Origin: a virus
Length of the DNA: 64,000 nucleotides
IMG/VR virus record: IMGVR_UViG_3300037478_000520
Span: 32,001 to 96,000 of that record
Reading direction: 5' to 3' (one strand)
This document shows positions 9,143-62,597 of the stretch, in pieces. Each line of letters opens with the position of its first letter. Position 1 is the first letter of the stretch. Position numbers and translations under genes: made by a program. The notes beneath the pieces are model-generated. The model was not told the origin of the DNA and searched no databases. It worked only from the letters and a program-made list of their open reading frames with translations.

Positions 9143-9547
9143 ATGGTGTGCTGGGAACACGGCCGCCAAGGAACCGGCTACCTCAAGCACAGGCTCGCAA
9201 GCGCCATGTGGCCGATCCCGTGGGACGTGTACTTGCTGAAGTTCCCGCCAGGCTCGCACATTCCAAGGCATCGGGATCTGTCCGTGCTTGGCCGTCACTA
9301 CCGCCTGAACGTGACACTGTGGAATGCGCACCCAAAGCACCCGTTCCAGTCCACAGGCTGGCTGTGGCGGGGATTTGGGCGCCGCGTGGTACTGTTCCGG
9401 CCGGACATTCACGCGCACGCTGTGCGGCGGATTGAGATCGGGACGCGGTACGTGTTGAGCTTTGGGTGGTTGTGCCGTGATCGTGATGGCCGCCAGCCCA
9501 TGGGGTCAGGAAGTTCTGAAGTTGCAGAAGGCTCTCGGCGCCTTTGA
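9143..9547 (+). CDS. 2OG-Fe(II) oxygenase-like protein
   Basis: HxD (RHRD), LFRPD..AHAV, TRYVLSFGW. Confidence 0.75.
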   Translation: MVCWEHGRQGTGYLKHRLASAMWPIPWDVYLLKFPPGSHIPRHRDLSVLGRHYRLNVTLWNAHPKHPFQSTGWLWRGFGRRVVLFRPDIHAHAVRRIEIGTRYVLSFGWLCRDRDGRQPMGSGSSEVAEGSRRL

Positions 9548-9556
9548 AGCCGAGAT
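9521..9556 (+). CRISPR. Solo degenerate CRISPR repeat
   Basis: GTTGCAGAAGGCTCTCGGCGCCTTTGAAGCCGAGAT, close to the array consensus with both helices intact. Confidence 0.85.
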
Positions 9557-9934: not shown

Positions 9935-9970
9935 AAAAAAACCCCCTGACCGCGCAAGGCGACCAGGGGG
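9935..9970 (-). terminator. Intrinsic terminator downstream of CRISPR array 1
   Basis: Minus strand CCCCCTGGTCGC-cttgc-GCGGTCAGGGGG followed by T7. Confidence 0.85.
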
Positions 9971-10017: not shown

Positions 10018-10560
10018 CAAAGGCGCCGAGGGCCTTGTGCGACGTGCCGTGCTCGCAGTGCCAGAGCTTCCTTGCACCCTTGTCTCAGCTTCAAAGGCGC
10101 TGAGGGCCTTGTGCGACGGTCAGGGAAGTAGTGCGAGAGGTGCGCGTAGCCAAGTCTCAGCTTCAAAGGCGCTGAGGGCCTTGTGCGACGGCCGCCTCGT
10201 CCAGCACGTCCTTGTTCGGAGTTCGGTCTCAGCTTCAAAGGCGCTGAGGGCCTTGTGCGACCGCGAGGAGGCCGCCTGTCGAAGCGCCACAGATGAGGTG
10301 TCTCAGCTTCAAAGGCGCTGAGGGCCTTGTGCGACTCAACCGCCCTGCGGCGAGGGCCGCAAGTACCACCCTCATGTCTCAGCTTCAAAGGCGCTGAGGG
10401 CCTTGTGCGACTCGGCGATCACCTCGGCCATCACGTACCGTCGGTGCTCGCGTCTCAGCTTCAAAGGCGCTGAGGGCCTTGTGCGACTACCCGAGTCCGG
10501 CGCGCGCCACCGCGCTCGCCCCACGTCTCAGCTTCAAAGGCGCTGAGGGCCTTGTGCGAC
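10018..10560 (-). CRISPR. CRISPR array 1 (orphan): 7 full plus 1 truncated repeat, 7 spacers
   Basis: Minus-strand repeat GTCGCACAAGGCCCTCAGCGCCTTTGAAGCTGAGAC (36 nt); spacers 36-40 nt; leader at 10561-10752. Confidence 0.97.
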
Positions 10561-10752
10561 CGCTTCGTCAGATTGTCAAAGATCCCAAGCGCTTGCAAGC
10601 CGGTTTGCGAGAGCCTGTCGCTACGCGCTACAGGACGTCTACCACGGAAGCTGCTTTGGGCTGACGACCATCGGATTTCGCTAATATCCCCGCATTCTTA
10701 GCCAGTTTGCGAGCGGTCCCCGGGGTTGGCGCGCCGCCGGACCTCTCGCGAA
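10561..10752 (-). promoter_or_regulatory. CRISPR leader 1
   Basis: Near-identical reverse complement of 24472-24663. Confidence 0.85.
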
Positions 10753-24471: not shown

Positions 24472-24663
24472 TTCGCGAGAGGTCCGGTGGCGCGAAAACC
24501 CCGGGGACCGCTCGCAAACTGGCTAAGAATGCGGGGATATTAGCGAAATCCGATGGTCGTCAGCCCAAAGCAGCTTCCGTGGTAAACGTCCTGTAGCGCG
24601 TAGCGACAGGCACTCGCAAACCGACTTGCAAGCGCGTGGGATCTTTGACAATCTAGCGGACCT
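24472..24663 (+). promoter_or_regulatory. CRISPR leader 2
   Basis: Shared with leaders 1 and 3; ends GGGATCTTTGACAATCT. Confidence 0.85.
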
Positions 24664-25287
24664 GTCGCACAAGGCCCTCGGCGCCTTTGAAGCCGAGACT
24701 CCTGTGCTCCGGGCGGGGCGACCATTGCGAGGCAGTGTCGCACAAGGCCCTCGGCGCCTTTGAAGCCGAGACTTGTGCTCGAGGGCGCGCAAGGCATCGG
24801 AAAGTCTACCGCGGTCGCACAAGGCCCTCGGCGCCTTTGAAGCCGAGACGTGGGGGCGAGCGCGGTGGCGCGCGCCGGACTCGGGTAGTCGCACAAGGCC
24901 CTCGGCGCCTTTGAAGCCGAGACCGGCTGCAGGACGTGCTGGATTGGCTTGCGAGCCGGGGGGTCGCACAAGGCCCTCGGCGCCTTTGAAGCCGAGACGT
25001 GATCAGCCGCGTAGACCGCCAGCAGCGTCCACGCGGTCGCACAAGGCCCTCGGCGCCTTTGAAGCCGAGACTCTTGTTCTTGCATCTCTCCAAGAATCGC
25101 CCTATGGGGGTCGCACAAGGCCCTCGGCGCCTTTGAAGCCGAGACCCCAATCCCAGGTCGGAGACGGAACTCGCGCAGTCGTCGCACAAGGCCCTCGGCG
25201 CCTTTGAAGCCGAGACCGTAGGTCTGTGAGCACGTGGTGCAAGCCGATGGAGTATCACAAGGCCCTCGGCGCCTTTGAAGCCGAGAA
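24664..25287 (+). CRISPR. CRISPR array 2 (orphan): 9 repeats, 8 spacers
   Basis: Repeat GTCGCACAAGGCCCTCGGCGCCTTTGAAGCCGAGAC; degenerate last repeat. Confidence 0.98.
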
Positions 25288-48125: not shown

Positions 48126-48207
48126 ATGGCTGGCGACGGGGCTTGGACTTCGGCCGAGCCCCAACGCGAGCGACTTTTTTCACTTCGAACAACAAGGGAA
48201 TACCGCC

Positions 48208-48735
48208 ATGACATCTTACACTGTAATCATAACGTGGGCGCTCGCCGCTAGCGCTGGGACCGGACAGACAACCGTCTGCTTTGAGGCCGCATCGCCCGAC
48301 CCTGCCAAGGCGGCCGTGGAAGCGTGGCGGACCCCCGTCACGCACAGCGGTTCCGCTGTAATCGAGTGGATGCCCGAAACCGCTGTAATCGCGTCCGTGC
48401 GGGCCGTGGCTGACGGGTGCGGCAAACATGCCCGCCCGTCCATCGCCAAGCCGCCCGAGGCGACAATCCTCGAGATTCCCGCTGCGACCTATCCCGCCAC
48501 CGTCCACTACCGCACGCCCGACGGATCGACGGCCCGATGCGACGCGACAATCCTGTGCTCCGGGCGGGGCGACCATTGCGAGGCCGTGATAGACCCTGGC
48601 GCCTGCACATCGCACTGGGGACTTGAGCAATGTCTCGCCAGCACCGTGGCCGTACCCGGCGACGATTCCGCCGATACCCTGGGGTGCGACCCGGGCGCCC
48701 GGCTGCTCGATATCGACTGGACGGACCCGCTGTAA
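48208..48735 (+). CDS. Hypothetical Cys-containing protein; carries the protospacer of array 2 spacer 1
   Basis: AAGGG SD; 48551-48587 matches spacer 24700-24736 at 36/37. Confidence 0.65.
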   Translation: MTSYTVIITWALAASAGTGQTTVCFEAASPDPAKAAVEAWRTPVTHSGSAVIEWMPETAVIASVRAVADGCGKHARPSIAKPPEATILEIPAATYPATVHYRTPDGSTARCDATILCSGRGDHCEAVIDPGACTSHWGLEQCLASTVAVPGDDSADTLGCDPGARLLDIDWTDPL

Positions 48736-50467: not shown

Positions 50468-50502
50468 GGGAAATAGGGCGCTCAAAAGGAGCTTGAGACA
50501 CC

Positions 50503-50802: not shown

Positions 50803-50832
50803 CCACCTGCAACCAAAACCGGAACGAACACC

Positions 50833-51705
50833 ATGAACACGAACACCATGAACGCCTGCCAACGATGCAACGCCGAATCCAAAACCGATGTGTGCGGGCG
50901 ATGCGCCGCCTACGTGAGCCAGATCGAGGCCAAGCGCGACCGATACGAGGAACGCGCCGAAAAGGCATCGGACGAGTCCGAATCCCGCATGAACGCGTTC
51001 TCACGCGTCACCGGGAACATCCCACTAGGACAGCCGATCCTAATCGGCCACCACAGCGAAAAGCGCCATCGGAAGGATATCGAACGCGCAAAAAACAACC
51101 TCAAAAAGAGCATGGAAGCGGCCGACAAGGCCAAGCACTACGCCAGCAAGGCCGAATCCTACGGTACGCACGGCATCGCTAGTGACGACCCGGCTGCTGT
51201 CGCTCAGCTGAAGCAAAAGATAGCCGGGCTGGAGTCCAGTCGGGACGAAATGAAGCGCATCAATGCGATTTTCCGCAAGGGCGGATGGGATGCAGTGAGC
51301 GCAGAAATTGGACCGGAGCAATTTCGAAAACTCATCAGCCGAGTCCAATACCAAACCGAACAGCGCCCATTCCCTTCCTACGCGCTAGCCAACCTCGGTT
51401 CGGAGATCCGGCGCGTAAAGCAGCGGATCGCGGAGTTGGAGATCAAGGAAGCCTCGCGCCCCGTAGATCCAAATGATTCGGAGGAAACGATCATGGACGC
51501 CCCCGGCAAGTTCGTTGCGGCGGTTCACCACGACCTTGACCGCGTTGCCTTCGACTTCCCTGGGAAGCCCGCGGAAGCCGTTCGCACTGTCCTCAAGTCC
51601 GCCGGATTCCGCTGGGCGCCATCGCTCGGCATGTGGACTCGCAAGGACACTCCGAACGCGCGCGCAGCAACCCGCCGAATCGCCGAGCAAATCGCAGCAC
51701 TCTAA
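50833..51705 (+). CDS. DUF3560-domain protein
   Basis: IPLGQPILIGHHSEKRHR, IASDDP.A..QL, F.SY.L.NL.SEIRR, FPGKP...VR..LK..GFRWAPS. Confidence 0.9.
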   Translation: MNTNTMNACQRCNAESKTDVCGRCAAYVSQIEAKRDRYEERAEKASDESESRMNAFSRVTGNIPLGQPILIGHHSEKRHRKDIERAKNNLKKSMEAADKAKHYASKAESYGTHGIASDDPAAVAQLKQKIAGLESSRDEMKRINAIFRKGGWDAVSAEIGPEQFRKLISRVQYQTEQRPFPSYALANLGSEIRRVKQRIAELEIKEASRPVDPNDSEETIMDAPGKFVAAVHHDLDRVAFDFPGKPAEAVRTVLKSAGFRWAPSLGMWTRKDTPNARAATRRIAEQIAAL

Positions 51706-51735
51706 CCGCCCCGAAAGACACCGGAGAACCTATCC

Positions 51736-52980
51736 ATGCGCACCACCTACATAATCCCCTCAGAACGCGTGCCCGCCTTTGAAAAGCGGATCGGACAGCT
51801 CCGCCGCAAAGCGTCCAAGCTCGGGTGCCCCGAAATCACTTGCGAGCGCTTAGGCGATTATTGGACCCGCTATGTCCTGGAGCACGGACTATGCCAGATC
51901 CACACCTATGTCGCGTTTGAATGCGGCACCGAAGCGCCGTCTTTCGACGGCTGGACCCTAGCCGCGAAGATCGAAAACGGGGCTTGGCTTGGCGATGCGG
52001 ACGGCGCGATCGTCAAGCGAGTACCCGGCTCACCGGAACTCCCCGAAGCCTTCCGCGACCACAGTGCGATCGATCCGCAGCACTGTGATCACTGTGCTGC
52101 ATCCCGCCGGCGCAAAGACACATTCGTTGTCCGGCACGATACCGGCGCGTGCAAGCAGGTTGGACGCCAGTGCATCCGAGATTTCCTTGGGCACGACTCA
52201 CCGGAGAAAATCGCAAGCCGGTATGACTTTTCCTTGGAGCTGCACGGTGAATTGTCCGAGTTTTGCAGCGGCGGGCAAGCCATCGAGCTTGCCGATTACG
52301 CGGAATTCCTCGCCTACGTGTTCAAGTGCATCCGAATGGGCGGGTTCACCTCCGCCAGTACCGCCAAGCGCCGAAGCGAAACCGCTGCGACCGGATGCGA
52401 GGTCTTATCGACAGCCGATGAAGCCGCTAGCGCTATGCGCGCCCGCCCTCAATCACGCGGGTACTGGACCCCAGAGACAAAGGACTTCAAAGACGCACTA
52501 GCCGCCCTGGAATGGGCGCCAGCGTTGACCGAGCAGTCCAGCGACTTCGCGCAAAACATGCGCGCCGCGCTTGCCGGTGCTGGCGTCTCCATCCGGACGC
52601 AAGGCACCGTCGCCTACCTCGCGGAAGCCTACCGCAACCGTAACGGTCGCCCCGACCGTGCCGGCAAGGCCCCTAGCGCGCACGTAGGCGCCGTCAAATC
52701 GCGCGTTGAGCTCACCCTCACCCTGGACCACGAGACAGGCTGGGATGGCACCTACGGCTGGACCCGCCTCTACAAATTCAGCGATGTCGCCGGCAACGTG
52801 ATCACCTGGAAAACCGGCAGCAAGTTTCGCGACGAATCCGGGGAGGCCATCGAAGTGGGCGACACCCTTGACGTCAAGGCGACAATCAAGGCCCACAGCA
52901 ACTACCAGGGGACGGCCCAAACCGCCATTACTCGAGTCACGGCGACCTGCAGCGCGCGCAAGCCCGCGCGATGCGCTTGA
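51736..52980 (+). CDS. Conserved phage protein with Zn-ribbon and C-terminal OB-fold
   Basis: CDHC...RRRKDTFVV, QVGRQC.RDFLG, YG.T.LYKF.D..GN...WK, KATIKAH..YQG..QT.ITRV. Confidence 0.85.
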   Translation: MRTTYIIPSERVPAFEKRIGQLRRKASKLGCPEITCERLGDYWTRYVLEHGLCQIHTYVAFECGTEAPSFDGWTLAAKIENGAWLGDADGAIVKRVPGSPELPEAFRDHSAIDPQHCDHCAASRRRKDTFVVRHDTGACKQVGRQCIRDFLGHDSPEKIASRYDFSLELHGELSEFCSGGQAIELADYAEFLAYVFKCIRMGGFTSASTAKRRSETAATGCEVLSTADEAASAMRARPQSRGYWTPETKDFKDALAALEWAPALTEQSSDFAQNMRAALAGAGVSIRTQGTVAYLAEAYRNRNGRPDRAGKAPSAHVGAVKSRVELTLTLDHETGWDGTYGWTRLYKFSDVAGNVITWKTGSKFRDESGEAIEVGDTLDVKATIKAHSNYQGTAQTAITRVTATCSARKPARCA

Positions 52981-53093
52981 TCACGCCACGGGACTTCCCA
53001 AGAAAAAACGCGCGGGCGTTCGTTTTATGGTTGCACAACAACCCGAATCGTGAGATCTATTGTGCATCCAACAACTGACACGGGAGATTCCAA

Positions 53094-53300
53094 ATGACCA
53101 GCTACCTGAACTTTCTCGAAGCGACCAAGCACCCACGCGGAACCCGCTATGCTGTCCACCTTAGCCCTTCAGCAAGCAACCCAAACGGCGTGCTCTTAGC
53201 CAATGGCCTGACGCGATCTGAAATGCTGAGGTTTGCGCGGAACATGCAACCGGACTTCCGGGTGTTCGCCCACACCCCGGATGCCCTGATCGCGCTGTAA
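53094..53300 (+). CDS. Hypothetical protein
   Basis: GGAG SD. Confidence 0.6.
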   Translation: MTSYLNFLEATKHPRGTRYAVHLSPSASNPNGVLLANGLTRSEMLRFARNMQPDFRVFAHTPDALIAL

Positions 53301-53342
53301 GCACCCCCCGCCACCTCACCCCAACCTCCGGAAGCCAAGCCC

Positions 53343-54038
53343 ATGACCCCCAATACCCTAAAGAAGCAGCGCGCCATGATCCGCAGCCTGTGCGCGGCGT
53401 TCGGTCGCGCGCACGCCGACCAAGCGAAAGCCACCAAGGCGTACACGCGGGCATCACGCCATGTGTCCGTGGACACCCGCGACGCGGGGGAACGCCTTCG
53501 CGACGCTCAACTCGCACTAGAAATCGCCGCGGAAAGGTTCGTCACTTACGTCATGCAACACGATCACGCGTTCGCGGACATCTGCGACCGTCCACACGCA
53601 ACGGTCGTTCAAGCGATCGACGCTGGAATCAAGAAGTCCGGCGGGGATATGATCCAGTTCGCGCGCATGACACGCGCAACGCTGCGAAACATCGCCACGC
53701 GGGCCCTGGAATCAACCCGCAAATCCGCCTTGGCTAAGTGTGATGGCCTTGCGTGGGACGGGACTGTCGCAAGCCTTGCCCAATGCCTTGTGAGCGCCTG
53801 CAAGGGCCGCGCGGATTACCTGGACGTACGCGGGCAAGGGATCGACGCACGCAAGGCGCTGGAAGTCGCCAGGGCGCTCCCCGCAGATGCGACCGTGTCA
53901 CTCACCGGTGGGCACTTGATCTTTCGCTACCGCGACGGACGCGGGCAAATCAGCCTGTGCACCACTTCCGAGTCCCACAGAGCCGAAGGAACGATCACCG
54001 TCCCGGTTGTGCACGCCACCGCTCGAGCCGCAGCTTAA
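53343..54038 (+). CDS. Hypothetical protein
   Basis: 231-aa ORF. Confidence 0.7.
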   Translation: MTPNTLKKQRAMIRSLCAAFGRAHADQAKATKAYTRASRHVSVDTRDAGERLRDAQLALEIAAERFVTYVMQHDHAFADICDRPHATVVQAIDAGIKKSGGDMIQFARMTRATLRNIATRALESTRKSALAKCDGLAWDGTVASLAQCLVSACKGRADYLDVRGQGIDARKALEVARALPADATVSLTGGHLIFRYRDGRGQISLCTTSESHRAEGTITVPVVHATARAAA

Positions 54039-54288
54039 AGCCGCTAGGGCTCAAGCCCGCTGTAACCGAACTGAAAGGGAAATCACATGACCGAACACAC
54101 GAAGTACCCCGAAGCGACCGACAACGGCAACGACGATCCAATTGGGCGATGGTACGCCCGGCGGCAGCGCGAAAAACACGAGGCATTCGACCGCTGGCAA
54201 GCGGCCAAGAGTTCCGGTGCCTAACCGCACTCATGGCGTTTTGGCACGAGTGCTTGTCGCCCCAAGAATAAATCTCGCACGGATTGCA

Positions 54289-54349
54289 TTTTTGTGCGCA
54301 CGAATCATTGACACGGGGCACCGCTAGCTCCACAGTTCTTTGTGCACCC
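54289..54349 (+). promoter_or_regulatory. Early promoter P4
   Basis: TTTTTGTGCGCAC, TTGACA 54308-54313, N17, CACAGT, TTGTGCACCC. Confidence 0.75.
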
Positions 54350-54393
54350 ATCAACCGTCCCGCTAACGCAGCGGGACCCTCGGAAGGAAAACC

Positions 54394-54663
54394 ATGGCAA
54401 AAAAACACCCTGTGAGCACGCACGAGCAATTTGGCGCCGACCGTTGGCTCGGCACGGCCGACGACTGCGATGCAGTGCGATACCTCGCTCGGAATCTACC
54501 GATTGAAGATACCCACATCGAGGACCCCGAGTTTGCGCGTGGTGTAATCTGTAGTGAGTCGGGCGTCGGCGAGTGGGACCCTGAAGCAGCGGACATCTTC
54601 GAGGCCGAGCTACTCGCGCGCCTGCAGAGGATGGCATCAGCCGCGGAAGAAGGTGCGCTGTGA
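54394..54663 (+). CDS. Hypothetical protein
   Basis: AAGGA SD; ends EGAL with the junction motif. Confidence 0.7.
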   Translation: MAKKHPVSTHEQFGADRWLGTADDCDAVRYLARNLPIEDTHIEDPEFARGVICSESGVGEWDPEAADIFEAELLARLQRMASAAEEGAL

Positions 54664-55349
54664 GCGCGCGGTGCGACCAGTGGGACGTCGACACGGTGCC
54701 CGCGCGCCGCTGCAACCAGTCGGGGGTCAACGTCCGGCTACCATGCCCGGTCGGGCGCCCGGACGCCACTGCGTGCTACTGCGACGACCACGGGGGCGAA
54801 ATCCGCGCCCGTCGCGAGGCCGAACGGGATTGGAATTATCTGGCGCCGGAATCCGTTGGTGACGCGGGCGCGGTCCATGCCGCGGGATGCGCGCAACTGA
54901 CCACGATCAACGCCTACCTGGTGATCCGTCAGACTCCGCCGCCGCAAGGCTCGGTTTGGCTCGCGTGGCTGGGCCTCGGATCGCTGCTTACGCCCGTTGG
55001 CCGGCCCGGCGCCGTCCCTAGCCGACGTGCGGGGCAAAAGCACCGGCGCGCTCACAGTCCGGGCGTCGCTCACGTGACCGGCGTCCGGAGCTTTGATTCA
55101 CGAGCCGAAGCCGTATTGGCTGGCATCGGCGCTTGGGCCGAACGCTTGAACGCTGACGTCGCAACCATTCGACGCGCGCGCGGAGGAACCCTCGCATGGG
55201 GCGTGCCGGTCGAGCCGCTGCTCTCACCGATCATGGTAGAGGTGGCACCCGACCAAAACGCGTGGGATGTGGCGATCCAACAGCCTCGTGTCGCTGGGGT
55301 TGGGCTGGGGCGGATCACGGGCCTTCGCGCGAGTGGAGAAGCGTTGTAA
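54660..55349 (+). CDS. Hypothetical protein
   Basis: Coupled by GTGA; Cys-rich N-terminus. Confidence 0.65.
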   Translation: MSARCDQWDVDTVPARRCNQSGVNVRLPCPVGRPDATACYCDDHGGEIRARREAERDWNYLAPESVGDAGAVHAAGCAQLTTINAYLVIRQTPPPQGSVWLAWLGLGSLLTPVGRPGAVPSRRAGQKHRRAHSPGVAHVTGVRSFDSRAEAVLAGIGAWAERLNADVATIRRARGGTLAWGVPVEPLLSPIMVEVAPDQNAWDVAIQQPRVAGVGLGRITGLRASGEAL

Positions 55350-55440
55350 GGAGTCGAAAACTGGTGAAATTCAGTTTTGCCCGAGGCACGCCTGTTTTTC
55401 CCACGGCTCATCCGGCTGTGTCAGCGCGAAAGGCAACACC

Positions 55441-55635
55441 ATGATCCGCACCCTCCTACTCACTCTCGCCACGGTCGCCGCCCTGGCTGCCCTTCACGGC
55501 GCGCCCGAGCCCGCGTGCGCCAAGGGTCGTTGCACCCGCATGAAGCCATGGTGCCCGCCGTTCCGCGAGCCCTTGTGCATCTGCACTGACCCCGTTAGAC
55601 CAAGCTCCTGCAGTTGGGAATGCGTGGCACTATGA
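55441..55635 (+). CDS. Secreted cysteine-rich peptide
   Basis: Signal peptide MIRTLLLTLATVAALAA; 7 Cys in 40 aa. Confidence 0.65.
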   Translation: MIRTLLLTLATVAALAALHGAPEPACAKGRCTRMKPWCPPFREPLCICTDPVRPSSCSWECVAL

Positions 55636-55853
55636 CGACGAATATGGACACCGGCATGATAACAACGACTCGAAAAAAAGGGCGCCCGAAAGAGCCCTAC
55701 CCCGCCGACAAGCGAATCCATGTCCGGTGTCAGACCGCGCAGCTCGCGGAGATCCACCGCCGAGCGTCCGACGCTGGTATGACATTCTCTGAATACGTGC
55801 TGGCGTGCTGCCTTGCCGGCTGGGATCCAGAGCGCAGCGCTAGCGATGCGTGA
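55632..55853 (+). CDS. Ribbon-helix-helix DNA-binding protein
   Basis: KKGRPK, RIHVRC......IHRRA.DAGMTFSEYV. Confidence 0.8.
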   Translation: MTTNMDTGMITTTRKKGRPKEPYPADKRIHVRCQTAQLAEIHRRASDAGMTFSEYVLACCLAGWDPERSASDA

Positions 55854-55880
55854 TTCAGAAAAAAAATCACGCGGACCGCA

Positions 55881-55930
55881 TTTTTTGTGCACCCGAGCAG
55901 TTGACAGAGCGGACGGCGTGATCTAGTTTC
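55881..55930 (+). promoter_or_regulatory. Early promoter P5
   Basis: TTTTTTGTGCACCC, TTGACA 55901-55906, N17, TAGTTT. Confidence 0.8.
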
Positions 55931-55977
55931 TCGGAGTGAGGGACGGACCCTTAACCCGGACGGACCGGGGCGAAAGA

Positions 55978-56655
55978 ATGGATGGACAGATGAGCAAAGT
56001 TGAAATTCTCGCAGCGTGTGACGCAATCCGCACCCGTTTCGCTGGGCGCGCAAAGCTTCGAGATCTCGCCAGCCGCGACGCGATCGCGCGCGCCGAACTG
56101 CAGCGCCGGCTGGGCCTGATCGACGACGCGACATTCGCCGGGCTGGAGCGGGCTGCACTTCGGGTTGCGGCGACCGGTGGAAAATCCGGCTGGTTTGCTT
56201 TCAATCGCCTCGCAGAGATTCGCGAGAATCGCGCGAAGGCGAAGGCTCGCCCGGCAGATCGCAAGCCTGGGCATGTGCAGTCAGTGATCGTCGATCGGCG
56301 GTTTCGCGAGGCCCTAGCCGCTGCTGGGATCCGCGCGACGACTCACGGACACGAAGACGTCTTCGTGTCCGTGCCGGTGGGCGCCGAAGGCGCTATCAGC
56401 GAGACCAGCACAATTTGGCCGAACCAGCTGGGGCTGCCGAATTCGTACAAATACCCGGTCACGTGCAGCACGCACACCTGGCTAATCAGCCCCGCGGTCC
56501 TGCGCCCCGAGGTGCGCGCGCTGAACGCCCGGTGCCCGTCCGGGATCGTCTATCTATCGGCGACCGTGCGCGTCCGGCAAGGCCGCGGAACGTCACTCGT
56601 GGTCGAGACTCTGTCCGCTCGCCAGGCGCTTCGTGCGCTCCGGGTGGCAGCATGA
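55978..56655 (+). CDS. Hypothetical protein
   Basis: First gene after P5. Confidence 0.7.
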   Translation: MDGQMSKVEILAACDAIRTRFAGRAKLRDLASRDAIARAELQRRLGLIDDATFAGLERAALRVAATGGKSGWFAFNRLAEIRENRAKAKARPADRKPGHVQSVIVDRRFREALAAAGIRATTHGHEDVFVSVPVGAEGAISETSTIWPNQLGLPNSYKYPVTCSTHTWLISPAVLRPEVRALNARCPSGIVYLSATVRVRQGRGTSLVVETLSARQALRALRVAA

Positions 56656-57590
56656 GCCTCGCTGCTATCACGCGCGTGGTCGAGCTCGTCGATCGCGGCT
56701 CACCACGCGACGGGCGGCGATTGCGCAGGCTACTATCCGCCGTCGACCGTGCGCCGGTCCCCGTGCGACCACGGCTGTTGGCCTCGATTGCTGTGGTCGA
56801 GCCTGCGCTATCCTCCCTGGTCGCGCAGCACCCCGGACCGCTGTGCCCCGCGTACCCGAGGGTGGACGCGGCAGTCGCCGCGCGGCTGGCGCTGGGCGAG
56901 CGACCCGCAGAGGTTCTCCGCGGCCTCACCCCCCGCGAGGCGCACGAGGCGCTGTCGACCGGGTGTTCGAGCGCTGTCGCGTGGATTCTGCGCGACTGCG
57001 CTGGGACTGAGGGCGTCCGGAGCGTGCCAGTCGCCAGGTGGCTCGTGGCGTGCCTCGCCGACCCTGCGCGCGCCGAAGCGCTCGACCGCACGCGCGAGGA
57101 GCACACTCCCGCGGGCGTGGTCGAGGGGCGGTACACCGATCGTGTCGACGAGATCACGCCGGCGGATCTCGCCAAGGGCGACCGGACCGGGGTGGCCAGC
57201 GCATTCCGCGCTGCGTCCGCGCGAATCTACGCGAAATGGTGCGCGAGCCACGAGCGCGACGAGACTCCGCTTGCCGCCGTTCCGAGCTGGTGGAGGCCAG
57301 TCAGGTGCGCGCGGCTGTGCCTGTCGCGCGCGAGCTTGATCCGAGAAGGTCGCGAGCTGCGGCACTGCGTAGGCACGTACGCACCGCATGTCTCACGCGG
57401 CAAGACCGTGATTGTCTCGATCGCGATTCGCGACGGGGCCGGGCTCGTGCACCGGTCGACGGTGGACATCGATCGCCGCACCGCGGCAGTCGTGTCGCAC
57501 CGAGGGGCCAGTAATTGTGAGCCACCGGCATTGAACAACCGCGCTATCGCGGTGCTCGCGCGGCGCTGGAAGGAAAATTGTCATGGATGA
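56652..57590 (+). CDS. PcfJ-like domain protein
   Basis: L.REG.ELRHCVGTY...V..G...IVSI, RSTVDI, HRG.SN. Confidence 0.8.
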   Translation: MSLAAITRVVELVDRGSPRDGRRLRRLLSAVDRAPVPVRPRLLASIAVVEPALSSLVAQHPGPLCPAYPRVDAAVAARLALGERPAEVLRGLTPREAHEALSTGCSSAVAWILRDCAGTEGVRSVPVARWLVACLADPARAEALDRTREEHTPAGVVEGRYTDRVDEITPADLAKGDRTGVASAFRAASARIYAKWCASHERDETPLAAVPSWWRPVRCARLCLSRASLIREGRELRHCVGTYAPHVSRGKTVIVSIAIRDGAGLVHRSTVDIDRRTAAVVSHRGASNCEPPALNNRAIAVLARRWKENCHG

Positions 57591-57855
57591 TCGAAAATCA
57601 ATCGACGCTGAATTGCACACCCTCCGAAGCTGCATCCGCGGCTGCGAGGACAGCCGGCAGCGCAGTGAAATGGAGGGTGCGCGGTTCCAAATTTACGCGG
57701 CCTTCGAGCACCGCGATCCCGACGCGGCGCGACGCTGGGCGAAGGCGCTTCGGGCCGCGCTGATCGCCGTCGACCACGACGAGCTGCGCGGCATGGGGCT
57801 CGATGCGCTGGGCGTGATCGAGAGCGCGATCGGGGACGGCGGAGGTGCGCTGTGA
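57583..57855 (+). CDS. Hypothetical protein
   Basis: AAGGA SD; ends GGAL. Confidence 0.65.
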   Translation: MDDRKSIDAELHTLRSCIRGCEDSRQRSEMEGARFQIYAAFEHRDPDAARRWAKALRAALIAVDHDELRGMGLDALGVIESAIGDGGGAL

Positions 57856-58244
57856 GCCGTCCCCTTCCCCGCGAGCGGGGCGTATCCTCGGCGGAGTTCG
57901 AACTCCTGCGTGGTGAGGCAATCGCGTACGGGGAGGGCCGGGGTGGCGATGTCGACCCGACGACTCCAGATGCGATCCGCCAAACTCTCGCCGAGCTGGG
58001 CGGTCGGCCCCCGAGCGAGGCGTCAATCGTCGAAACCTCCTCCGCGCTACGCACCGAGGTACTAGCCCACCTGGCGAGAGTGGAGCAGAACCGCCAAGCG
58101 CGTGTGGAGGCAGCGCGTCATCGGTCCGCCCGCACAGGGGACGGTGAGCTAGTCGAAGGCTCACTGTCGGTCGCAGAGCCCACGCCGCAGGATGCCCCGC
58201 GGTCGTGGGCAGAAGTGCTTTGCGCGCGCCGAGGTGCGCTATGA
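57852..58244 (+). CDS. Hypothetical protein
   Basis: Coupled junctions at both ends. Confidence 0.6.
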   Translation: MSRPLPRERGVSSAEFELLRGEAIAYGEGRGGDVDPTTPDAIRQTLAELGGRPPSEASIVETSSALRTEVLAHLARVEQNRQARVEAARHRSARTGDGELVEGSLSVAEPTPQDAPRSWAEVLCARRGAL

Positions 58245-58426
58245 GCCCGCACGACTATGAGCGCGCCAGCGTCATGGATCGCCAGGAACCGACCGAGTAC
58301 CGGCAGACAAAGGAAAAACCATTGGTGAAATTGATCTGCTGTGTGGTGTTGGCGGCTTTGGTCTCCGCTGCCATCTGCCTGGCCGCTTGGTATCTGGCGT
58401 TCTTACACCTCGCGCCATCGCTGTAG
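58241..58426 (+). CDS. Small membrane protein
   Basis: One TM helix. Confidence 0.55.
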   Translation: MSPHDYERASVMDRQEPTEYRQTKEKPLVKLICCVVLAALVSAAICLAAWYLAFLHLAPSL

Positions 58427-58442
58427 CCGAAAGCTTTACAAA

Positions 58443-59069
58443 ATGACCACAACAAAAAAACTACTCGGTGAGATCACCCACGCTGGCAAGTATGTCGAGA
58501 ACCGAGCGCCGAAACTGCTCGGCCCCGACCTGATCCGTAACCAGGGGCTGGTTAGGACCATCATCCAGGACTACCGCGCTAACCCGCGCTTTCCGTTCGC
58601 GCCGGGCTTCGTGGCCACGGCGGTCTACCGCTACGGCTGCTGGACTCGCACGATCGCGTCCAAGACCCTGCGACGCGTGGCCCGCGTGCCCTACTGGCTC
58701 GGTTACCTGTGGACGCGCGACGTGTACGGGATCGAGCTGTTCGACTCCGCGCGCATCGGGAGGCGGCTCAACATCGCGCACCAGAGCGGCATCGTGATCC
58801 ACTTGCACGCGGAGATCGGGGACGACTGCGTGATCCGGCACTGCGTGACGTTCGGCGAGGGCACGGGCCCGAGCGCGGAAGGCCCGGTCATCGGTGATCG
58901 CGTGAGCTTCGGGCCTGGGACGGTTGTGATGGGGGCCGTCGTGATCGGCGATGACGTGAGCGTCGGGCCAAACTGCACGATCTCGCGGGACGTTCCAGCG
59001 TGCACAGCGGTAGTCGCCGGGCGGCCAACCGTGGTCCCGAAGATCCGTCACACGAGGCCCGAGCCGTGA
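58443..59069 (+). CDS. Hexapeptide-repeat O-acetyltransferase (CysE/WcaB-like)
   Basis: YGIEL..SARIGRRLNIAH.SGIVIH..AEIGDDC.I.H.VT.G, PVIGDRV, IGDDV.VG.N....DVP. Confidence 0.9.
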   Translation: MTTTKKLLGEITHAGKYVENRAPKLLGPDLIRNQGLVRTIIQDYRANPRFPFAPGFVATAVYRYGCWTRTIASKTLRRVARVPYWLGYLWTRDVYGIELFDSARIGRRLNIAHQSGIVIHLHAEIGDDCVIRHCVTFGEGTGPSAEGPVIGDRVSFGPGTVVMGAVVIGDDVSVGPNCTISRDVPACTAVVAGRPTVVPKIRHTRPEP

Positions 59070-59377
59070 AAGGCCCTTGGTACATCACGCTGGCCGCCGT
59101 CGAGCACTGGATGCGCGTCCGCCGCTACCCCGACGACGACGCGCACTTTGAGCGCGCCGAGGACGAGCTTTTCGGGTTGATCCAAGGCGCCAAGCTTCGC
59201 CAGACTGACGCTGAAGGCCGGCAGCTGTGGCGCATAGGCCGACCGCACAAAGCCCGCATGATCGTCGACACACGCAAGCTGGAACGCGTGGACGGACGCG
59301 ACTTGCCGCGCCTGATCTGGGTTGGTCAGGGCCACCCGCCACACTGGTGCTGGACGAAAGAAGGAAACATTGACTAG
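59066..59377 (+). CDS. Hypothetical protein, possibly RelE/ParE-like fold
   Basis: GTGA coupling; WYIT..A / helix / LWRIG..RMIV / LIWVG.GH layout. Confidence 0.6.
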   Translation: MKGPWYITLAAVEHWMRVRRYPDDDAHFERAEDELFGLIQGAKLRQTDAEGRQLWRIGRPHKARMIVDTRKLERVDGRDLPRLIWVGQGHPPHWCWTKEGNID

Positions 59378-59486
59378 AGCGCCGATCAGAGAAGGGGAGA
59401 TCGCCACAGTCACCAAACGACTGCGCGTCACACCCGAGCAAGCCGAGGAGCTGGAGCGGGCTCCAGCGCAAAAGAAGGAAACTTGA
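59370..59486 (+). CDS. 38-aa RHH-like ORF (not in the ORF track)
   Basis: AAGAAGGA SD, TTG start, KRLRVTPEQAEELER. Confidence 0.45.
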   Translation: MTRAPIREGEIATVTKRLRVTPEQAEELERAPAQKKET

Positions 59487-59488
59487 AA

Positions 59489-61588
59489 ATGCAAACCATC
59501 GCCTACAAATACCGGATCCTTCGCGTGCTCTCCGACGAGCGGGCTATCATGGACGAGATCCGAGCCGGTCACCGGCTCTACAACGATCTAGTCGCCATCG
59601 AGCGCAAGCGACGGGCCGCGACCGAGGCGTTCTGGGCTGAGCGTGGTGGGTACCAGGATCTTCTGGCCGAGCGTGGGAAGGCCATCGAATTCGCCGAGTC
59701 GATTCCCAAGGGCGATGATCGGCGCGAGGAGAAGCGCGCGGCATGGCGCGCTGTGAACGATCTGCGTAAGCAGATCTGGGAGTGCGAGAAGGACGCCATC
59801 AAAGCGTTCCACGCGAGCGATCCCGTGAAGATCCGCAGGATGGAACGCGCCAAGGAACTCCGTGCTGCTGCGAAGGCGCGCAAGGAAAAGCTAACGGCGA
59901 AAAAGATCGCGGACATTCTTGACGAGGAACCAGATTGCCTGACCGAGCGGGATAAGCTGCGCAAAACGCTTATCCAGAGCTACAAGGATCGCGGCGTCGG
60001 GATCAGTGCGAAAACCGTGGCTGGCAAGCTCGCAGAGGCATTCCCTGGTCCGACGGAACACGTCGAGCAGGAGGCGAAAGCCGCGGCGTACACAGCCTAT
60101 CGCGAACGCGGTGTTACGCCCGGTACGCGCGCGGTGGTTGCGGACGCGCATGAGCGCTCGCTTGAGATGCTCGAGTGGCGAGAGCAACGCTTCAAGCCGT
60201 GGTCCGGCCACGGCGCATTCGGAACGCAAATCCAAGGAGGCGCGACGTACGGCGACCTATGCAGTGGCAGCCACACGTTTGCTCAACTGGAGTGCCTCGA
60301 CCGCGGCAACTACACTCCTGGATCTCGCCGGCATGGCAGTCTGCACAGGCTACGCGTGCGCCTTGGGTCGGACGGTCAGAAGCCCGTCTGGGCGGAATTC
60401 GAAGCGAGCCTACTTCGCAGCGGCCCGCGTACGTCCGCGTCGACATCGGATCCGATCCCACCCGATGCGCGCGTAATGCAAGTGCGCGTGGTGGTCGACC
60501 GAATCGGCGTGCACGACCACTGGTACGTCTGTTTCACGGCTCAGGTTCCGGACGCCGTGCACTTGCGGGATGAGCCGCCGACGAAGGGCGGGACGGTGGC
60601 CATCGACATTGGGTGGCGCAGTTTGGACGGTGGTTTGCGGGTCGGATACTTCCACGACGGGCAAGAGCACGGCCCCATCGACCTGCCAACGATCCGCAAG
60701 CGACTCAAGCCGCACGGGAAGCGAGGCGCCAAGGCGAAGTGGTTCGAAGTGCGCGACGTGTTCGATCACGCGAGTCACATCCAAGGGATCCTGTCTCAGG
60801 AATTCTACTCCGAGGACAAGGATGCGGCCGTGTACGGCGGCGCCTTGCATGACCTAGCGGTCTGGATCGACTCGCGCGGGCGCGATGCTCTCCCCGAGTG
60901 GCTCTCCGAATCTACCGCCGGGATCCGACAGTGGCGTTCGCAAGCTCGGCTCAACGGACTAGTTGAACGATGGCTTCACAACCGTTTCGAGGGCGACGGT
61001 CAAATCGTCGCTCGCATGGATCAGTGGCGCAAAGACTATAGGCATTTGCATGAATGGTGCGCGCGGGAGAGAAACCGCGCCCTGAACGCGCGCGACGAGC
61101 ACTACAGGCAGACCGCGCTACGCCTCGCGCGCGCGTACGAAACGATCGTGATCAACGGCGCCGACCTTGCAACCACGCGCCGCCGCAAACGGAAAGAGAA
61201 GGCCGCCCCCGAGCTGGTCATGGTCGAGGATGCGAAGCGTTCGCAGGCCTTCGACGCCGCGCCGGGGAAGCTCCGGGAAGAGATCGTAAAGGCGGCAAAG
61301 AAGTACGGCCGGACACTGGTCAAATTGCCGTTCGAAACCGAGAGGTGTCACGTTTGCGGGGAGGTGTGTGAATTTGACCGTGCCCGCTATCTCTCACACA
61401 AGTGCGAGCACGAGCCATGCACAGCACAGTGGGACCAGGACGCCAACGCGTGCCTGAATGCCCTTCGCGAGTGGTCCGGTGGCGCGAAAACCCCGGGGAC
61501 CGCTCGCAAACGCGACAAGCCCGCGAAGTCACGTGAGAAAACGACGGGGCGCGGCGACGCAATAGGCGCTGTGAGCGATTCGCTGTAG
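59489..61588 (+). CDS. cas12m: Type V CRISPR effector, Cas12m (V-M/V-U1)-like, probably nuclease-deficient
   Basis: RLGSDG..PVW, TVAIDIGWRS (RuvC-I), QWRSQ.R, R.RAL..RDE.YRQ.A, IVINGADL (RuvC-II E>N), AAPG.LR, CxxC..C...C Zn finger, WDQD.NA (RuvC-III); adjacent 36-nt-repeat array. Confidence 0.88.
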   Translation: MQTIAYKYRILRVLSDERAIMDEIRAGHRLYNDLVAIERKRRAATEAFWAERGGYQDLLAERGKAIEFAESIPKGDDRREEKRAAWRAVNDLRKQIWECEKDAIKAFHASDPVKIRRMERAKELRAAAKARKEKLTAKKIADILDEEPDCLTERDKLRKTLIQSYKDRGVGISAKTVAGKLAEAFPGPTEHVEQEAKAAAYTAYRERGVTPGTRAVVADAHERSLEMLEWREQRFKPWSGHGAFGTQIQGGATYGDLCSGSHTFAQLECLDRGNYTPGSRRHGSLHRLRVRLGSDGQKPVWAEFEASLLRSGPRTSASTSDPIPPDARVMQVRVVVDRIGVHDHWYVCFTAQVPDAVHLRDEPPTKGGTVAIDIGWRSLDGGLRVGYFHDGQEHGPIDLPTIRKRLKPHGKRGAKAKWFEVRDVFDHASHIQGILSQEFYSEDKDAAVYGGALHDLAVWIDSRGRDALPEWLSESTAGIRQWRSQARLNGLVERWLHNRFEGDGQIVARMDQWRKDYRHLHEWCARERNRALNARDEHYRQTALRLARAYETIVINGADLATTRRRKRKEKAAPELVMVEDAKRSQAFDAAPGKLREEIVKAAKKYGRTLVKLPFETERCHVCGEVCEFDRARYLSHKCEHEPCTAQWDQDANACLNALREWSGGAKTPGTARKRDKPAKSREKTTGRGDAIGAVSDSL

Positions 61589-61656
61589 ACCTGGGATCAG
61601 GAGCGCTCGCAAAACGGTTTGCAAGCGCGTGGGATCTTTGACAATCTAGCCGAGCT
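61464..61656 (+). promoter_or_regulatory. CRISPR leader 3, overlapping the cas12 3' end
   Basis: First 48 nt are 47/48 identical to 24472-24519; proximal TTGCAAGCGCGTGGGATCTTTGACAATCTAGC is shared. Confidence 0.85.
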
Positions 61657-62575
61657 GTATCAGAAGGCCCTCGGCGCCTTTGAAGCCGAGACCAGATGGC
61701 GTTGTGCATCTGGTTGTCGAGCCGCCGGGTATCAGAAGGCCCTCGGCGCCTTTGAAGCCGAGACCGCGACTGGCTTCATTCGGTTACTTTTTTCGATACT
61801 CGTATCAGAAGGCCCTCGGCGCCTTTGAAGCCGAGACACGCCCATGTCCGAGCCGCAGCGAAGCGCGTCGCCTCGTATCAGAAGGCCCTCGGCGCCTTTG
61901 AAGCCGAGACAGGGGGACCGCTCACCCGCAAGAGCGCTTTCAGCCGGCGGTATCACAAGGCCCTCGGCGCCTTTGAAGCCGAGACCCGCACGTCCGGATC
62001 GGCGAGCACCGGCGGTACGTGAGTATCAGAAGGCCCTCGGCGCCTTTGAAGCCGAGACTCTTGTTCTTGCATCTCTCCAAGAATCGCCCTATGGGGGTCG
62101 CACAAGGCCCTCGGCGCCTTTGAAGCCGAGACGCGCGCTGGAATGGTGGCGCTGCGCATCGGCGCGATCGTCGCACAAGGCCCTCGGCGCCTTTGAAGCC
62201 GAGACTAACACCCGGGCGCTGTTACCAAACACCCCAAGGCAGGGGTCGCACAAGGCCCTCGGCGCCTTTGAAGCCGAGACCGCGCGGCGCCGAAGCCGAA
62301 GGCGAAGCCACTCGCGCGCGTGTCGCACAAGGCCCTCGGCGCCTTTGAAGCCGAGACACGGGAGTCATCTTCGTGACCGGAACGAATACCCAGTCGCACA
62401 AGGCCCTCGGCGCCTTTGAAGCCGAGACTGTTTGGCGACGGCGCGAACTCCAAGTCGACCATCCTCGGTATCAGAAGGCCCTCGGCGCCTTTGAAGCCGA
62501 GACACTGATCACGACCTACGCGAGGTGGTCGCCGACGTGGTATCACAAGGCCCTCGGCGCCTTTGAAGCTGAGAT
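61657..62575 (+). CRISPR. CRISPR array 3 (cas-adjacent): 13 repeats, 12 spacers
   Basis: Core AAGGCCCTCGGCGCCTTTGAAGCCGAGAC with 5' variants GTATCAG, GTATCAC and GTCGCAC. Confidence 0.98.
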
Positions 62576-62597
62576 CAAGGCGTAGCCCGTTCCCTAC

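Follow-up and report, generated by a model that had tools for sequence, protein, structure and literature searches.

Here, we describe a tailed phage from soil and sediment that encodes its own type V-M CRISPR effector, Cas12m, together with three dispersed CRISPR arrays whose repeats belong to this effector. We judge it probable, though well short of certain, that this is a genuine phage-borne V-M system that draws its guides from all three arrays, and that its role lies in conflict with mobile elements, above all with close relatives of the phage. The window (the whole stretch of 64,000 nucleotides that we analyzed) is part of a 113.66-kb contig that CheckV rates as about 82% complete. The contig encodes a large terminase, portal, protease, major capsid protein, sheath, tape measure and baseplate, a structural gene set that bears out the original prediction of a phage; with its integrase and RecT/RecE-like recombination proteins, it represents a myovirus-like phage that is probably temperate.

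By its sequence, the effector is a Cas12m (type V-M/V-U1) and not a TnpB, and we regard its matches to solved Cas12m structures (23vw_A Cas12m, E=2.6e-36; 8pm4_A GoCas12m, E=8.7e-13) as decisive for this identity. The PADLOC model Cas12u1 matches with E=6e-58, aligning residues 120-663 to profile positions 66-531 of 533, and these two lines of evidence uphold the earlier description of a Cas12m-like type V effector of 699 residues. The open reading frame spans 59483/59489-61588 (+), and since an AAGGA motif lies 9 nt upstream of the ATG at 59489, the 699-residue protein is the likely product. Alignment places a single RuvC-like domain with the triad D373-N556-D651 (D-N-D) and a zinc-finger/TNB insert at C620, C623, C639 and C644. 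It is extremely improbable that the protein is instead an IS605/IS607 TnpB-type transposon nuclease with repeats unrelated to it. Such an enzyme would account for the weak matches to TnpB models in their C-terminal part (NF038280, E=2.3e-7, 30 bits) and for a Pfam TNB domain match under its cut-off, but when the protein was checked against Cas12m and TnpB models alike, the latter fell far under their cut-offs: NF038280 scores 30.2 bits against 350 and NF040570 17.9 against 100, with NCBIfam TnpB models at no more than 30 bits against cut-offs of 100-425. The full-length matches are to Cas12m/V-U1, and at least 45 related viral loci carry an array of the same repeat layout directly downstream. 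Together, the TnpB scores, the Cas12m/V-U1 matches and the downstream arrays effectively refute a TnpB identity.

The asparagine in the middle position of the triad is also found in the close homologs P0003-5, and P0006 has a serine there. To our knowledge, no Cas12m with a D-N-D triad has been assayed so far. The D-N-D type is listed for Cas12m clade 4, within a family whose triads include DED, HDD, NDD, DND, NED and HEK (PMC10442227). All Cas12m proteins assayed to date, D-E-D included, bind without cutting (PMC11013384), and those with D-E-D, H-D-D or N-D-D triads bind without cleavage and give protection from phages and plasmids (PMC11013384, PMC10442227). By analogy with this family, a "dead" effector that only binds its target is plausible here too.

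We counted 30 copies of the 27-nt repeat core in the window, with none expected from shuffled sequence, and the remaining 50 kb of the contig hold no additional copies. This count agrees with the predicted 13-repeat array beside the effector and two further arrays of the same repeat with 27 spacers in all, and the coordinates (Table 1) agree with the predicted distances of about 36 kb (array B) and 51 kb (array A). The 36-nt repeat combines a 6-bp stem, which is its minimum-energy fold, with an AAGGC/GCCUU pseudoknot and a terminal GAC. Among 35 related repeats, pairing of the stem amounts to 95.7% and five of its six pairs covary, a score that none of 500 shuffles reaches. The pseudoknot, read straight from the sequence as AAGGC/GCCTT, is 58.9% paired as aligned across relatives, a low value because its register differs among them. 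Spacers are 35-41 nt long. Array C begins 69 nt past the cas12m stop codon; its repeats 7-11, directly after spacer C6, have a B-type 5' end, and its final repeat is degenerate. Array A comprises seven repeats and six spacers at 10560-10082, followed by a seventh spacer and a truncated eighth repeat at 10043-10018 that is of the ancestral type. An antisense copy of the repeat core (up to 3 mismatches), sought outside the arrays as a sign of a tracrRNA, was not found, and no Rfam family reaches its gathering score in the whole window. The window was said to lack cas1, cas2 and cas4, and this holds across the 113.66-kb record, in which Pfam models for Cas1, Cas2 and Cas4 have no match while controls matched as expected; the record being about 82% complete, the remainder could hold adaptation genes.

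Table 1. Positions of the cas12m locus, its arrays and related features in the window
Feature	Position	Strand	Remarks
Terminator-like hairpin	9942..9970	-	12 pairs then T run; after array A
Solitary repeat unit	9521..9556	+	stem and pseudoknot bases intact
Array A (orphan)	10018..10560	-	7 full and 1 truncated repeat, 7 spacers
Truncated cas12m C-terminal remnant and leader A	10561..10752	-	core 10570-10611
vWA-like gene	23223-24284	+	beside array B
Truncated cas12m C-terminal remnant and leader B	24472..24663	+	core 24613-24654
Array B (orphan)	24664..25287	+	9 repeats, 8 spacers
B1 target ORFan gene	48208-48735	+	inside accessory segment 47835..50825
B1 protospacer	48551..48587	+	36/37 match to spacer B1 (24700-24736)
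cas12m (type V-M/V-U1 effector, 699 aa)	59489..61588	+	PDB, PADLOC, NCBIfam, alignment
3' end of cas12m and leader C	61464..61656	+	~190-nt cassette copied before arrays A and B
Array C	61657..62575	+	13 repeats, 12 spacers; adjoins cas12m

The window also contains a solitary repeat unit that the original prediction did not list. No second repeat follows it, and the sequence downstream has no match in the genome.

At the level of DNA sequence, our alignments demonstrate that the orphan arrays A and B were made by duplication of a cassette, in which the 3' end of cas12m, the leader and the array were copied to two other sites. The roughly 190 nt that open each orphan array are homologous to cas12m from about codon 659 onward plus the leader, and both arrays therefore arose by such duplication. 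The remnant before array B reads ..RERSGGAKTPGTARK.., then runs into a diverged tail and a stop; the regions upstream of arrays A and B are identical at 182 of 200 nt; and the junctions of the duplicated cassettes also appear on contigs from independent runs. Three-way alignment reveals a nearly invariant 42-nt leader core common to all three arrays (61606-61647 in leader C) that includes a TTGACA motif, so that the claim of a shared repeat and leader stands. Each orphan array has kept this core and is therefore probably transcribed on its own. Viral mini-arrays that serve a host effector are recognized by a repeat that matches the host's system and by the lack of a cognate viral effector; arrays A and B are not of this kind, because their repeat and leader match the phage's own cas12m array and they follow a cas12m 3' remnant. 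As to placement, array C lies downstream of cas12m in a plus-strand block that also contains a primase-like gene, array A forms the 3' end of a minus-strand structural block, and array B lies antisense within that same block. One array had thus been placed correctly in the early module and two within or at the end of the late module; that the arrays are expressed at different stages of infection, as had been proposed, is not supported and is pure inference. The phage is present in 24 sediment and soil sequencing runs, none of which is listed as RNA.

The truncated remnants could also mean that only the cas-adjacent array works, with arrays A and B and the solitary repeat as decaying scars of duplication. 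In line with this, a promoter scan scored no sigma-70-type promoter at leaders B and C, the single promoter-like site near array A (10781-10752) precedes the cas12m remnant and falls outside the leader core, and targets for the guides were not found. We nevertheless consider decay unlikely: the repeats are intact, the stem in array A has been saved by a compensatory double change (CTCAGC..GCTGAG), the leader core has barely varied, array A has a strong terminator-like hairpin of its own, and scattered repeat units also occur in unrelated phages. The orphan arrays moreover hold unique spacers, and these have been exchanged with the cas-adjacent array in a sister variant.

Such exchange is visible both within this genome and beyond it. 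Spacers C6 and B6 are identical, and A1 and B3 nearly so. On a sister contig, cas12m differs from that of this phage by 4 nt, yet the spacers are not the same set: its array consists of a B3-type spacer, C4, C5 and three new spacers. We regard as new here the origin of the orphan arrays by cassette duplication, the sharing of spacers between arrays, the differing sister set and, as described next, the match of spacer B1 to the phage itself in place of any outside target. The phage population varies elsewhere as well: on contigs from three metagenome runs, 24 nt take the place of an accessory segment about 3 kb long, and this 24-nt filler was not found in the present genome.

For all the guides together we found a single target, and it is part of the phage's own genome. 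Spacer B1, the leader-proximal spacer of array B, matches an ORFan gene within the accessory segment, with a single mismatch at position 35 that is synonymous (GCC/GCA). The target gene lies about 11 kb upstream of cas12m and in the same plus-strand block; it is 23 kb from the spacer and cannot be phased with array B in the metagenome assembly. Its protospacer has the 5' flank GACAA, unlike the T-rich or C-rich PAMs published for Cas12m, so that B1 might not act on its own genome at all. Searches of Pfam, PHROG and IMG/VR turned up no family and no relative for the target gene or its neighbours. B1 was also the sole match when all spacers were compared at the protein level with the six-frame translation of the phage.

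External protospacers were found neither for the 27 spacers nor for the three extra spacers of the sister variant. Array C had no usable target among GenBank phages and none among 50 Cas12m-bearing viral records; exact seeds of B1, B3/A1, C6/B6 and A2/C5 gave no usable target in IMG/VR; and all spacers together had none in 21 whole relatives. All three arrays gave chance-level matches of about 30 nt in PLSDB (E=0.05-0.07) and, in about 400 Myxococcota genomes with two candidates scored per genome, matches that were partial and GC-rich (24-31 nt) and missed the PAM-proximal end. The proposed search of IMG/VR, PLSDB and Myxococcota thus returned no convincing outside target, and the idea that the system represses rival elements and host genes found no host or rival target for any spacer. 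Rival elements are therefore putative, not observed, targets of the guides.

That the guides instead repress host genes, for example a defence gene such as a patatin/CapV-like effector, without damage to host DNA, is still more doubtful than the decay of the orphan arrays. It would suit a spacer GC content that averages 66% against 61% for the phage, a reading of spacer A4 as DLICGASTGGLLA, and the presence of other phage genes of counter-defence type (NAMPT and NUDIX, and an RNA-repair set). Against it, a wobble-degenerate search with the A4 peptide (the "patatin" reading) gave 0 sites when 185,579 species were scanned at one genome per species, the matches in Myxococcota were the partial ones described above, and PLSDB held nothing convincing. 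A Myxococcota host is itself not supported, because relatives occur in just 3 of 401 sampled Myxococcota genomes, at 32-37% identity, and in four cellular loci on genome contigs, one of them a Labilithrix MAG (a count from a single peptide pattern that cannot be compared with the viral scan). Nothing, then, ties the phage to this phylum, as had been suggested.

Relatives are present on 63 IMG/VR contigs, and dozens of IMG/VR phage genomes, including many complete ones, carry array-bearing Cas12m relatives. For whole-genome comparison we used 18 array-bearing relatives, this phage included. Scattered repeat units appear in six of the 18 (about a third), unrelated phages among them, and five of the 18 carry self-matching spacers: in the four other genomes 33-34 of 34 nt match outside the arrays, compared with 36 of 37 here. 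One of these matches (in G043) falls inside the phage's own cas12m reading frame, and another (in G050) falls in an HNH homing-endonuclease-like gene. Controls with reversed spacers and with spacers searched across genomes each gave 0 matches. All five self-protospacers lie inside reading frames and none at a promoter; their 5' flanks (ACG, GTC, ACA, CCC and CAA) form no PAM-like pattern and are mostly unlike the published T-rich or C-rich PAMs.

These self-matches raise the possibility, to which we give limited credence, that the system is a self-regulator in which a non-cutting Cas12m with self-matching guides represses the phage's own genes, as early-gene shut-off or autoregulation of the effector; scattered arrays and solitary repeats might then serve to place guides in different transcription units. 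More generally, phage-borne Cas12m loci might, at a stretch, be natural, phage-autonomous CRISPRi circuits with scattered guides, some of them directed against the phage's own genes. Circuits of this kind could conceivably time or limit the phage's own expression or silence invading cassettes, and their self-aimed guides would tentatively be directed here at an accessory gene of the early block and in G043 at cas12m itself. The position of B1 next to its leader, its match upstream of cas12m, the recurrence of self-matches with clean controls, and the scattered repeats are all consistent with self-regulation. A nuclease-free effector would make self-matches non-lethal, and natural self-targeting CRISPRi by type IV-A is on record as cited in 10.1101/2023.06.23.546257. 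The intragenic location of all five self-sites and their flanks argue against it, however, as does the synonymous mismatch of B1, a sign that this spacer was captured from a relative. The region that B1 targets is dispensable in coexisting variants, and the self-matches might have arisen neutrally, either because abundant phage DNA was sampled or because mobile cassettes entered the genomes.

We regard silencing of rival or kin elements as the likeliest role of the system and self-regulation as a possible alternative. In the model that we propose, the effector would bind a crRNA composed of the 3' part of the repeat and a 35-41-nt guide and, by analogy with its family, would sit on PAM-flanked double-stranded DNA without cutting it, blocking transcription or replication. 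Guides would be supplied by the cas-adjacent array and by two orphan arrays that the copied cassette of cas12m 3' end, leader and array would have established at two genomic sites. Array content would change quickly through recombination between arrays, possibly also through host Cas1-Cas2 acting in trans. With such a system, a temperate phage would most likely practise superinfection exclusion or keep accessory cassettes in check. Support for a kin or accessory target comes from B1, whose target gene sits in a segment that is variable in the phage population and missing in coexisting variants from three runs, and from the self-match of G050 in an HNH homing-endonuclease-like gene.

Taken alone, the locus is of modest value as a well-resolved phage example of V-M, but it shows how orphan arrays form by cassette duplication and how guides can turn over rapidly without adaptation genes. 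More useful is the wider pattern among relatives read whole, about a third of which have scattered repeats and over a quarter self-matching guides. Active self-guides would mean that phages use CRISPR to control their own genes or to police mobile cassettes. A compact effector of about 700 residues is also of interest as a scaffold for CRISPRi or base editors.

Phage-borne V-M systems are of an already described kind, and this locus is a new example: it combines effector homology, a RuvC triad with a zinc finger, an adjacent array of 36-nt repeats and a lack of adaptation genes in the record. V-M systems are enriched on plasmids and found on some prophages, and a role in competition has been proposed for them (2024 review, PMC11656645). 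A preprint of September 2026 reports a phage Cas12m, MvCas12m of myxophage MV-1 (bioRxiv 10.64898/2026.09.14.751636), which likewise is phage-encoded with an adjacent array and no cas1, cas2 or cas4; it has no tracrRNA, and its spacers have no targets in IMG/VR, plasmid or host databases (10.64898/2026.09.14.751636). By its description, MvCas12m differs in having 610 residues, a D-E-D triad and one array of eight spacers, whereas here we find 699 residues, a D-N-D triad, three arrays and a solitary repeat distributed across 52 kb, leaders with cas12m remnants and a self-matching spacer. The bacterial proteins MmCas12m2, GoCas12m and MsCas12m (Wu 2022 as cited; PMC10442227; PMC11013384) share homology in the WED, RuvC and zinc-finger regions, and bacterial Cas12m systems also share the 36-nt repeat with stem, pseudoknot and GAC end and the lack of an adaptation module (PMC10442227, PMC11013384). 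PAM-dependent dsDNA binding without cleavage, silencing and self-processing of the pre-crRNA would be expected from that family (PMC10442227, PMC11013384). Relative to the bacterial proteins, the phage effector is about 25-35% identical and about 100 residues longer, with an insertion in its N-terminal half; it has a D-N-D triad where they have H-D-D, D-E-D or N-D-D, and it is encoded by a tailed phage, not by a plasmid or chromosome.

Two further groups of systems offer functional parallels. Like plasmid type IV-A (10.1101/2023.06.23.546257), the phage system resides on a mobile element without adaptation genes and tolerates self-matches, and it would be nuclease-free and act by transcriptional interference. 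Type IV-A differs in its class 1 multi-subunit effector and DinG helicase, which have no sequence relation to Cas12m; that system was shown to borrow Cas1-Cas2 from the host, and it serves competition between plasmids with spacers acquired in trans (10.1101/2023.06.23.546257). The arrays and solitary repeats of viruses, including those of huge-phage CRISPR systems, similarly lack adaptation genes and sometimes comprise several arrays or single repeats, with proposed roles in inter-virus competition or regulation (PMC11656645). Viral mini-arrays usually borrow a host effector (PMC11656645), whereas the repeats described here match the phage's own effector, and the arrays carry the footprint of its gene.

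The identity of this locus as a phage type V-M CRISPR-Cas12m system is secure. The original prediction of a 699-aa, Cas12m-like type V effector holds: the open reading frame is present, and an AAGGA motif 9 nt before the ATG at 59489 makes the 699-aa protein its likely product. In phmmer searches of PDB sequences, the effector matches the Cas12m chain 23vw_A (E=2.6e-36) and GoCas12m (8pm4_A, E=8.7e-13), with no TnpB chain among the matches. Profile comparison separates the two families in the same way: the PADLOC Cas12u1 model, V-U1 being the older name of V-M, matches residues 120-663 at E=6e-58, and a TnpB identity is rejected by NCBIfam TnpB models scoring at most 30 bits against cut-offs of 100-425. 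Pfam finds a TNB zinc-finger domain alone, under its cut-off. Alignment with eight homologs, anchored on GoCas12m H322/D497/D590, places the RuvC positions at D373, N556 and D651; the closest homologs (metagenomic, 43-57% identity) likewise lack the Glu and carry N or S instead, and more distant ones have E or D there. PMC10442227 lists D-N-D as one of the triads of Cas12m clade 4. Since all Cas12m proteins assayed to date, those with D-E-D included, bind PAM-flanked dsDNA without cutting it (PMC11013384), binding-only activity can reasonably be inferred here by analogy; non-cutting Cas12m still protect against phages and plasmids (PMC11013384). Our working model, based on the family's published behavior, would be binding-based silencing.

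The 27-nt core of the repeat occurs 30 times in the window, versus zero expected by chance, and has no copy in the remainder of the contig; a scan with this core confirmed the predicted numbers of arrays and spacers and the distances between them. Spacers are 35-41 nt long, with a mean GC content of 66% versus 61% for the phage. The minimum-energy structure of the 36-nt unit is a 6-bp stem, CUCGGC/GCCGAG, and the 5' AAGGC is able to pair with the loop GCCUU; such a stem-plus-pseudoknot is the layout reported for Cas12m crRNAs. All seven repeats of array A instead have the stem CUCAGC/GCUGAG, which differs by a double compensatory change. In an alignment of 35 repeats from related loci, 95.7% of stem cells are paired and five of six pairs covary; 0 of 500 shuffles reach this covariation score, and slid registers collapse. 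As aligned, the pseudoknot reaches only 58.9% pairing, since its register shifts between subfamilies.

Features of the Cas12m system (L numbers denote contig pieces, G numbers relative viral genomes with Cas12m)
Feature	Position	Strand	Description
cas12m	59483/59489-61588	+	ORF present; 699 aa likely from ATG 59489
Array C	61657-62575	+	13 repeats, 12 spacers
Array B	24664-25287	+	9 repeats, 8 spacers
Array A	10560-10082	-	7 repeats, 6 spacers
Array A extension	to 10043-10018	-	7th spacer and truncated repeat
Solitary repeat	9521-9556	+	stem and pseudoknot bases intact
Scattered-repeat loci	L156-159 (G025), L186-190 (G012), L206-210 (G027), L174-177 (G031), L222-227 (G045)

The parent IMG/VR record, of which the window covers bases 32001-96000, is linear, 113,660 bp long and about 82% complete by CheckV. 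Its structural genes (by PHROG: large terminase, portal, head protease, major head protein, tail sheath, tape measure, baseplate wedge and fibre proteins) form a single minus-strand block running from 44746 down to about 10800, and a plus-strand block at 46313-62585 includes a primase-like gene and closes with cas12m. Array A occupies the 3' end of the late strand, with a strong terminator after it (9970-9942); array B is antisense within the late block and adjoins a plus-strand vWA-like gene. The arrays are putatively 'early' or 'late' in expression. The predicted lack of cas1, cas2 and cas4 in the window extends to the whole 113,660-bp record, about 82% complete, where Cas1, Cas2 and Cas4 profiles found no match. 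Beyond the window the record encodes an integrase, RecT-like and RecE-like proteins, an RNA ligase, a DnaB-type helicase, NAMPT and a NUDIX protein. The integrase is tyrosine-type and accompanies the RecT/RecE-like recombination pair (L164:2966-4180 and L163:9477-11360); the phage is probably temperate. The nicotinamide phosphoribosyltransferase gene (E=7e-160) adjoins the NUDIX/cytidylyltransferase-like gene at L165:13250-15558 (109247-111558 of the phage's own record, G000), a pair reminiscent of the NAD+ reconstitution pathways with which phages counter NAD-depleting defences. In an RNA-repair-type gene set (8749-9138, 6923-8152 and 3588-3662, all plus strand, and L164:7296-8408), an RtcB C-terminal fragment is joined by tRNA-Pro(CGG) and by an RNA ligase of the Rnl type. 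The RtcB fragment (Pfam positions 292-426) is its own ORF downstream of the P63C-domain gene, and rtcB appears split or interrupted. The solitary repeat lies about 380 nt past this fragment, convergent with array A; no second repeat follows it, and the stretch downstream of it matches nothing in the genome. The minus-strand ORF 38285-38839, which comes directly after the gene for the major head protein, contains a 138-bp perfect tandem duplication (38372-38653; 2.0 copies, 100% identity).

The orphan arrays A and B carry traces of their origin. The regions upstream of the three arrays align from a sharp boundary, at 61464 within cas12m, 24472 (B) and 10752 (A), and those of A and B hold the final ~40 codons of a cas12m gene, reading ..RERSGGAKTPGTARK.., then a tail unlike that of the resident gene, then a stop. 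A 42-nt core containing TTGACA follows the remnant and is near-identical in all three arrays; over the 200 nt upstream, A and B agree at 182 positions. This shared remnant and leader point to cassette duplication, so that a 'cas12m 3' end, leader and array' unit was copied, probably from a different cas12m allele, and then copied again. Both junctions recur with their flanks in contigs of other runs, so the scattered layout is not an artefact of one assembly.

Guide content has also been exchanged. Spacer C6 equals B6 (38/38), A1 differs from B3 by one base, and A2 overlaps C5 (21 nt) and C12 (15 nt), implying that several guides hit variants of one gene. Right after C6, the repeat 5' end in array C changes from GTATCAG-type to GTCGCAC-type, which is a recombination footprint. 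In sister contig L084 (Ga0326597_10076742), cas12m differs by 4 nt and the leader is the same, yet the array at the same site (3261-3736) has only six spacers, first a B3-type (B3/A1) spacer, then C4, C5 and three new ones, and has only C4 and C5 in common with array C; guide content thus changes much faster than the gene. The terminal repeat of the L084 array has the array-A-type stem. Turnover combines inter-array recombination, which the phage's RecT/RecE-like system could drive, with the uptake of new spacers by a further route. This may be host Cas1-Cas2 working in trans, a mode demonstrated for type IV-A3 (10.1101/2023.06.23.546257).

Relatives of this Cas12m are encoded on 63 IMG/VR contigs, at 23-35% identity in an alignment-based scan (42% for one truncated match), and about 45 of the 63 have an array of the same repeat layout directly after the gene. 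Half of the whole records searched (25/50) reach 90% completeness or more, and many of these have terminal repeats; by proteome comparison, three such phages share Cas12m alone with this phage, which argues for movement of the module between unrelated phages. The alignment query that gave 63 relatives in IMG/VR gave 4 among 185,579 prokaryote species, each represented by one genome (a Pseudomonadota, a Labilithrix and a Deltaproteobacteria MAG, and a plasmid of Manganitrophus); as the two scans used different peptide patterns, this does no more than hint at a mostly virus-borne clade. We fetched 21 relatives whole, giving 18 genomes, this phage included, with an array near cas12m. In six of the 18, repeat units or additional arrays lie over 5 kb from cas12m, at distances of up to 58 kb; in G025, G012, G027, G031 and G045 these are solitary units or extra arrays 6-58 kb away, among them a second cluster of 15 units 18 kb off in G012 and seven single units in G045. 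Scattered units thus recur in phage V-M systems.

The guides had been predicted to repress rival mobile elements and host genes. We found no convincing protospacer for array C in GenBank phages or 50 Cas12m-bearing viral records, for arrays A, B and C in PLSDB, for any spacer in the 21 whole relatives, or for each array in ~400 Myxococcota genomes, and no convincing external one in four exact-seed scans of IMG/VR. Host-gene repression has no support either, from the ~400 Myxococcota genomes per array or from the 'patatin' reading of spacer A4, for which the 185,579 species, at one genome per species, gave no site; a Myxococcota host is itself unsupported, with distant relatives in 3 of 401 sampled genomes.

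The sole spacer with a match is B1, leader-proximal in array B, which matches 48551-48587 at 36/37 within an ORFan gene (48208-48735; 5' flank GACAA), the mismatch being a synonymous GCC/GCA. In contigs of three metagenome runs, 47834 is connected to 50826 by 24 nt that are absent from this phage genome. Coexisting variants without the ~3-kb segment 47835-50825, which includes the gene targeted by B1 as well as a low-coding stretch, are thus probable, and the segment looks like an indel polymorphism of the phage population. Array B and this site, 23 kb apart, are too distant for the assembly to phase, and the 'self' match of B1 may really be aimed at kin. Alternatively, the phage could regulate its own genes with its own guides. 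Self-matching spacers do recur: in five of the 18 genomes a spacer matches another site of its own genome perfectly or nearly so, with no match for reversed-spacer controls and none across genomes of this set. In G043 (complete, 78.8 kb, terminal repeats), spacer L182:18327-18360 matches L182:11462-11495 at 34/34 inside its own cas12m ORF (10260-12392), which could reflect effector autoregulation. Perfect matches in three other complete phages with Cas12m link the spacers at L153:17809 to an HNH-endonuclease-like gene (L154:11726-11759, G050), L188:14125 to L186:15320-15352 (G012) and L201:711 to L202:15877-15910 (G040). All five self-sites fall inside ORFs, and their flanks share no common or PAM-like motif. 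Given the recurrence of self-matches, we retain self-regulation as an unlikely reading. We favor a role in conflict with kin phages and mobile cassettes, because the one target known so far is an accessory gene that varies, the mismatch of B1 to it is synonymous, the self-target in one relative is a gene of the homing-endonuclease type, and V-M elsewhere is tied to inter-element competition (PMC11656645).

A phage-encoded Cas12m is not in itself new. A report of September 2026 (10.64898/2026.09.14.751636) presents a phage Cas12m that has an array next to it, lacks adaptation genes and has no identifiable targets, and a 2024 review describes V-M on plasmids and prophages (PMC11656645), so this locus adds to a known kind of system. 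It resembles the reported phage system in its adjacent array, its lack of adaptation genes and the absence of external targets in our searches; what it adds is the exchange of spacers, orphan arrays that bear the footprint of cas12m, and a guide that matches the phage's own genome.
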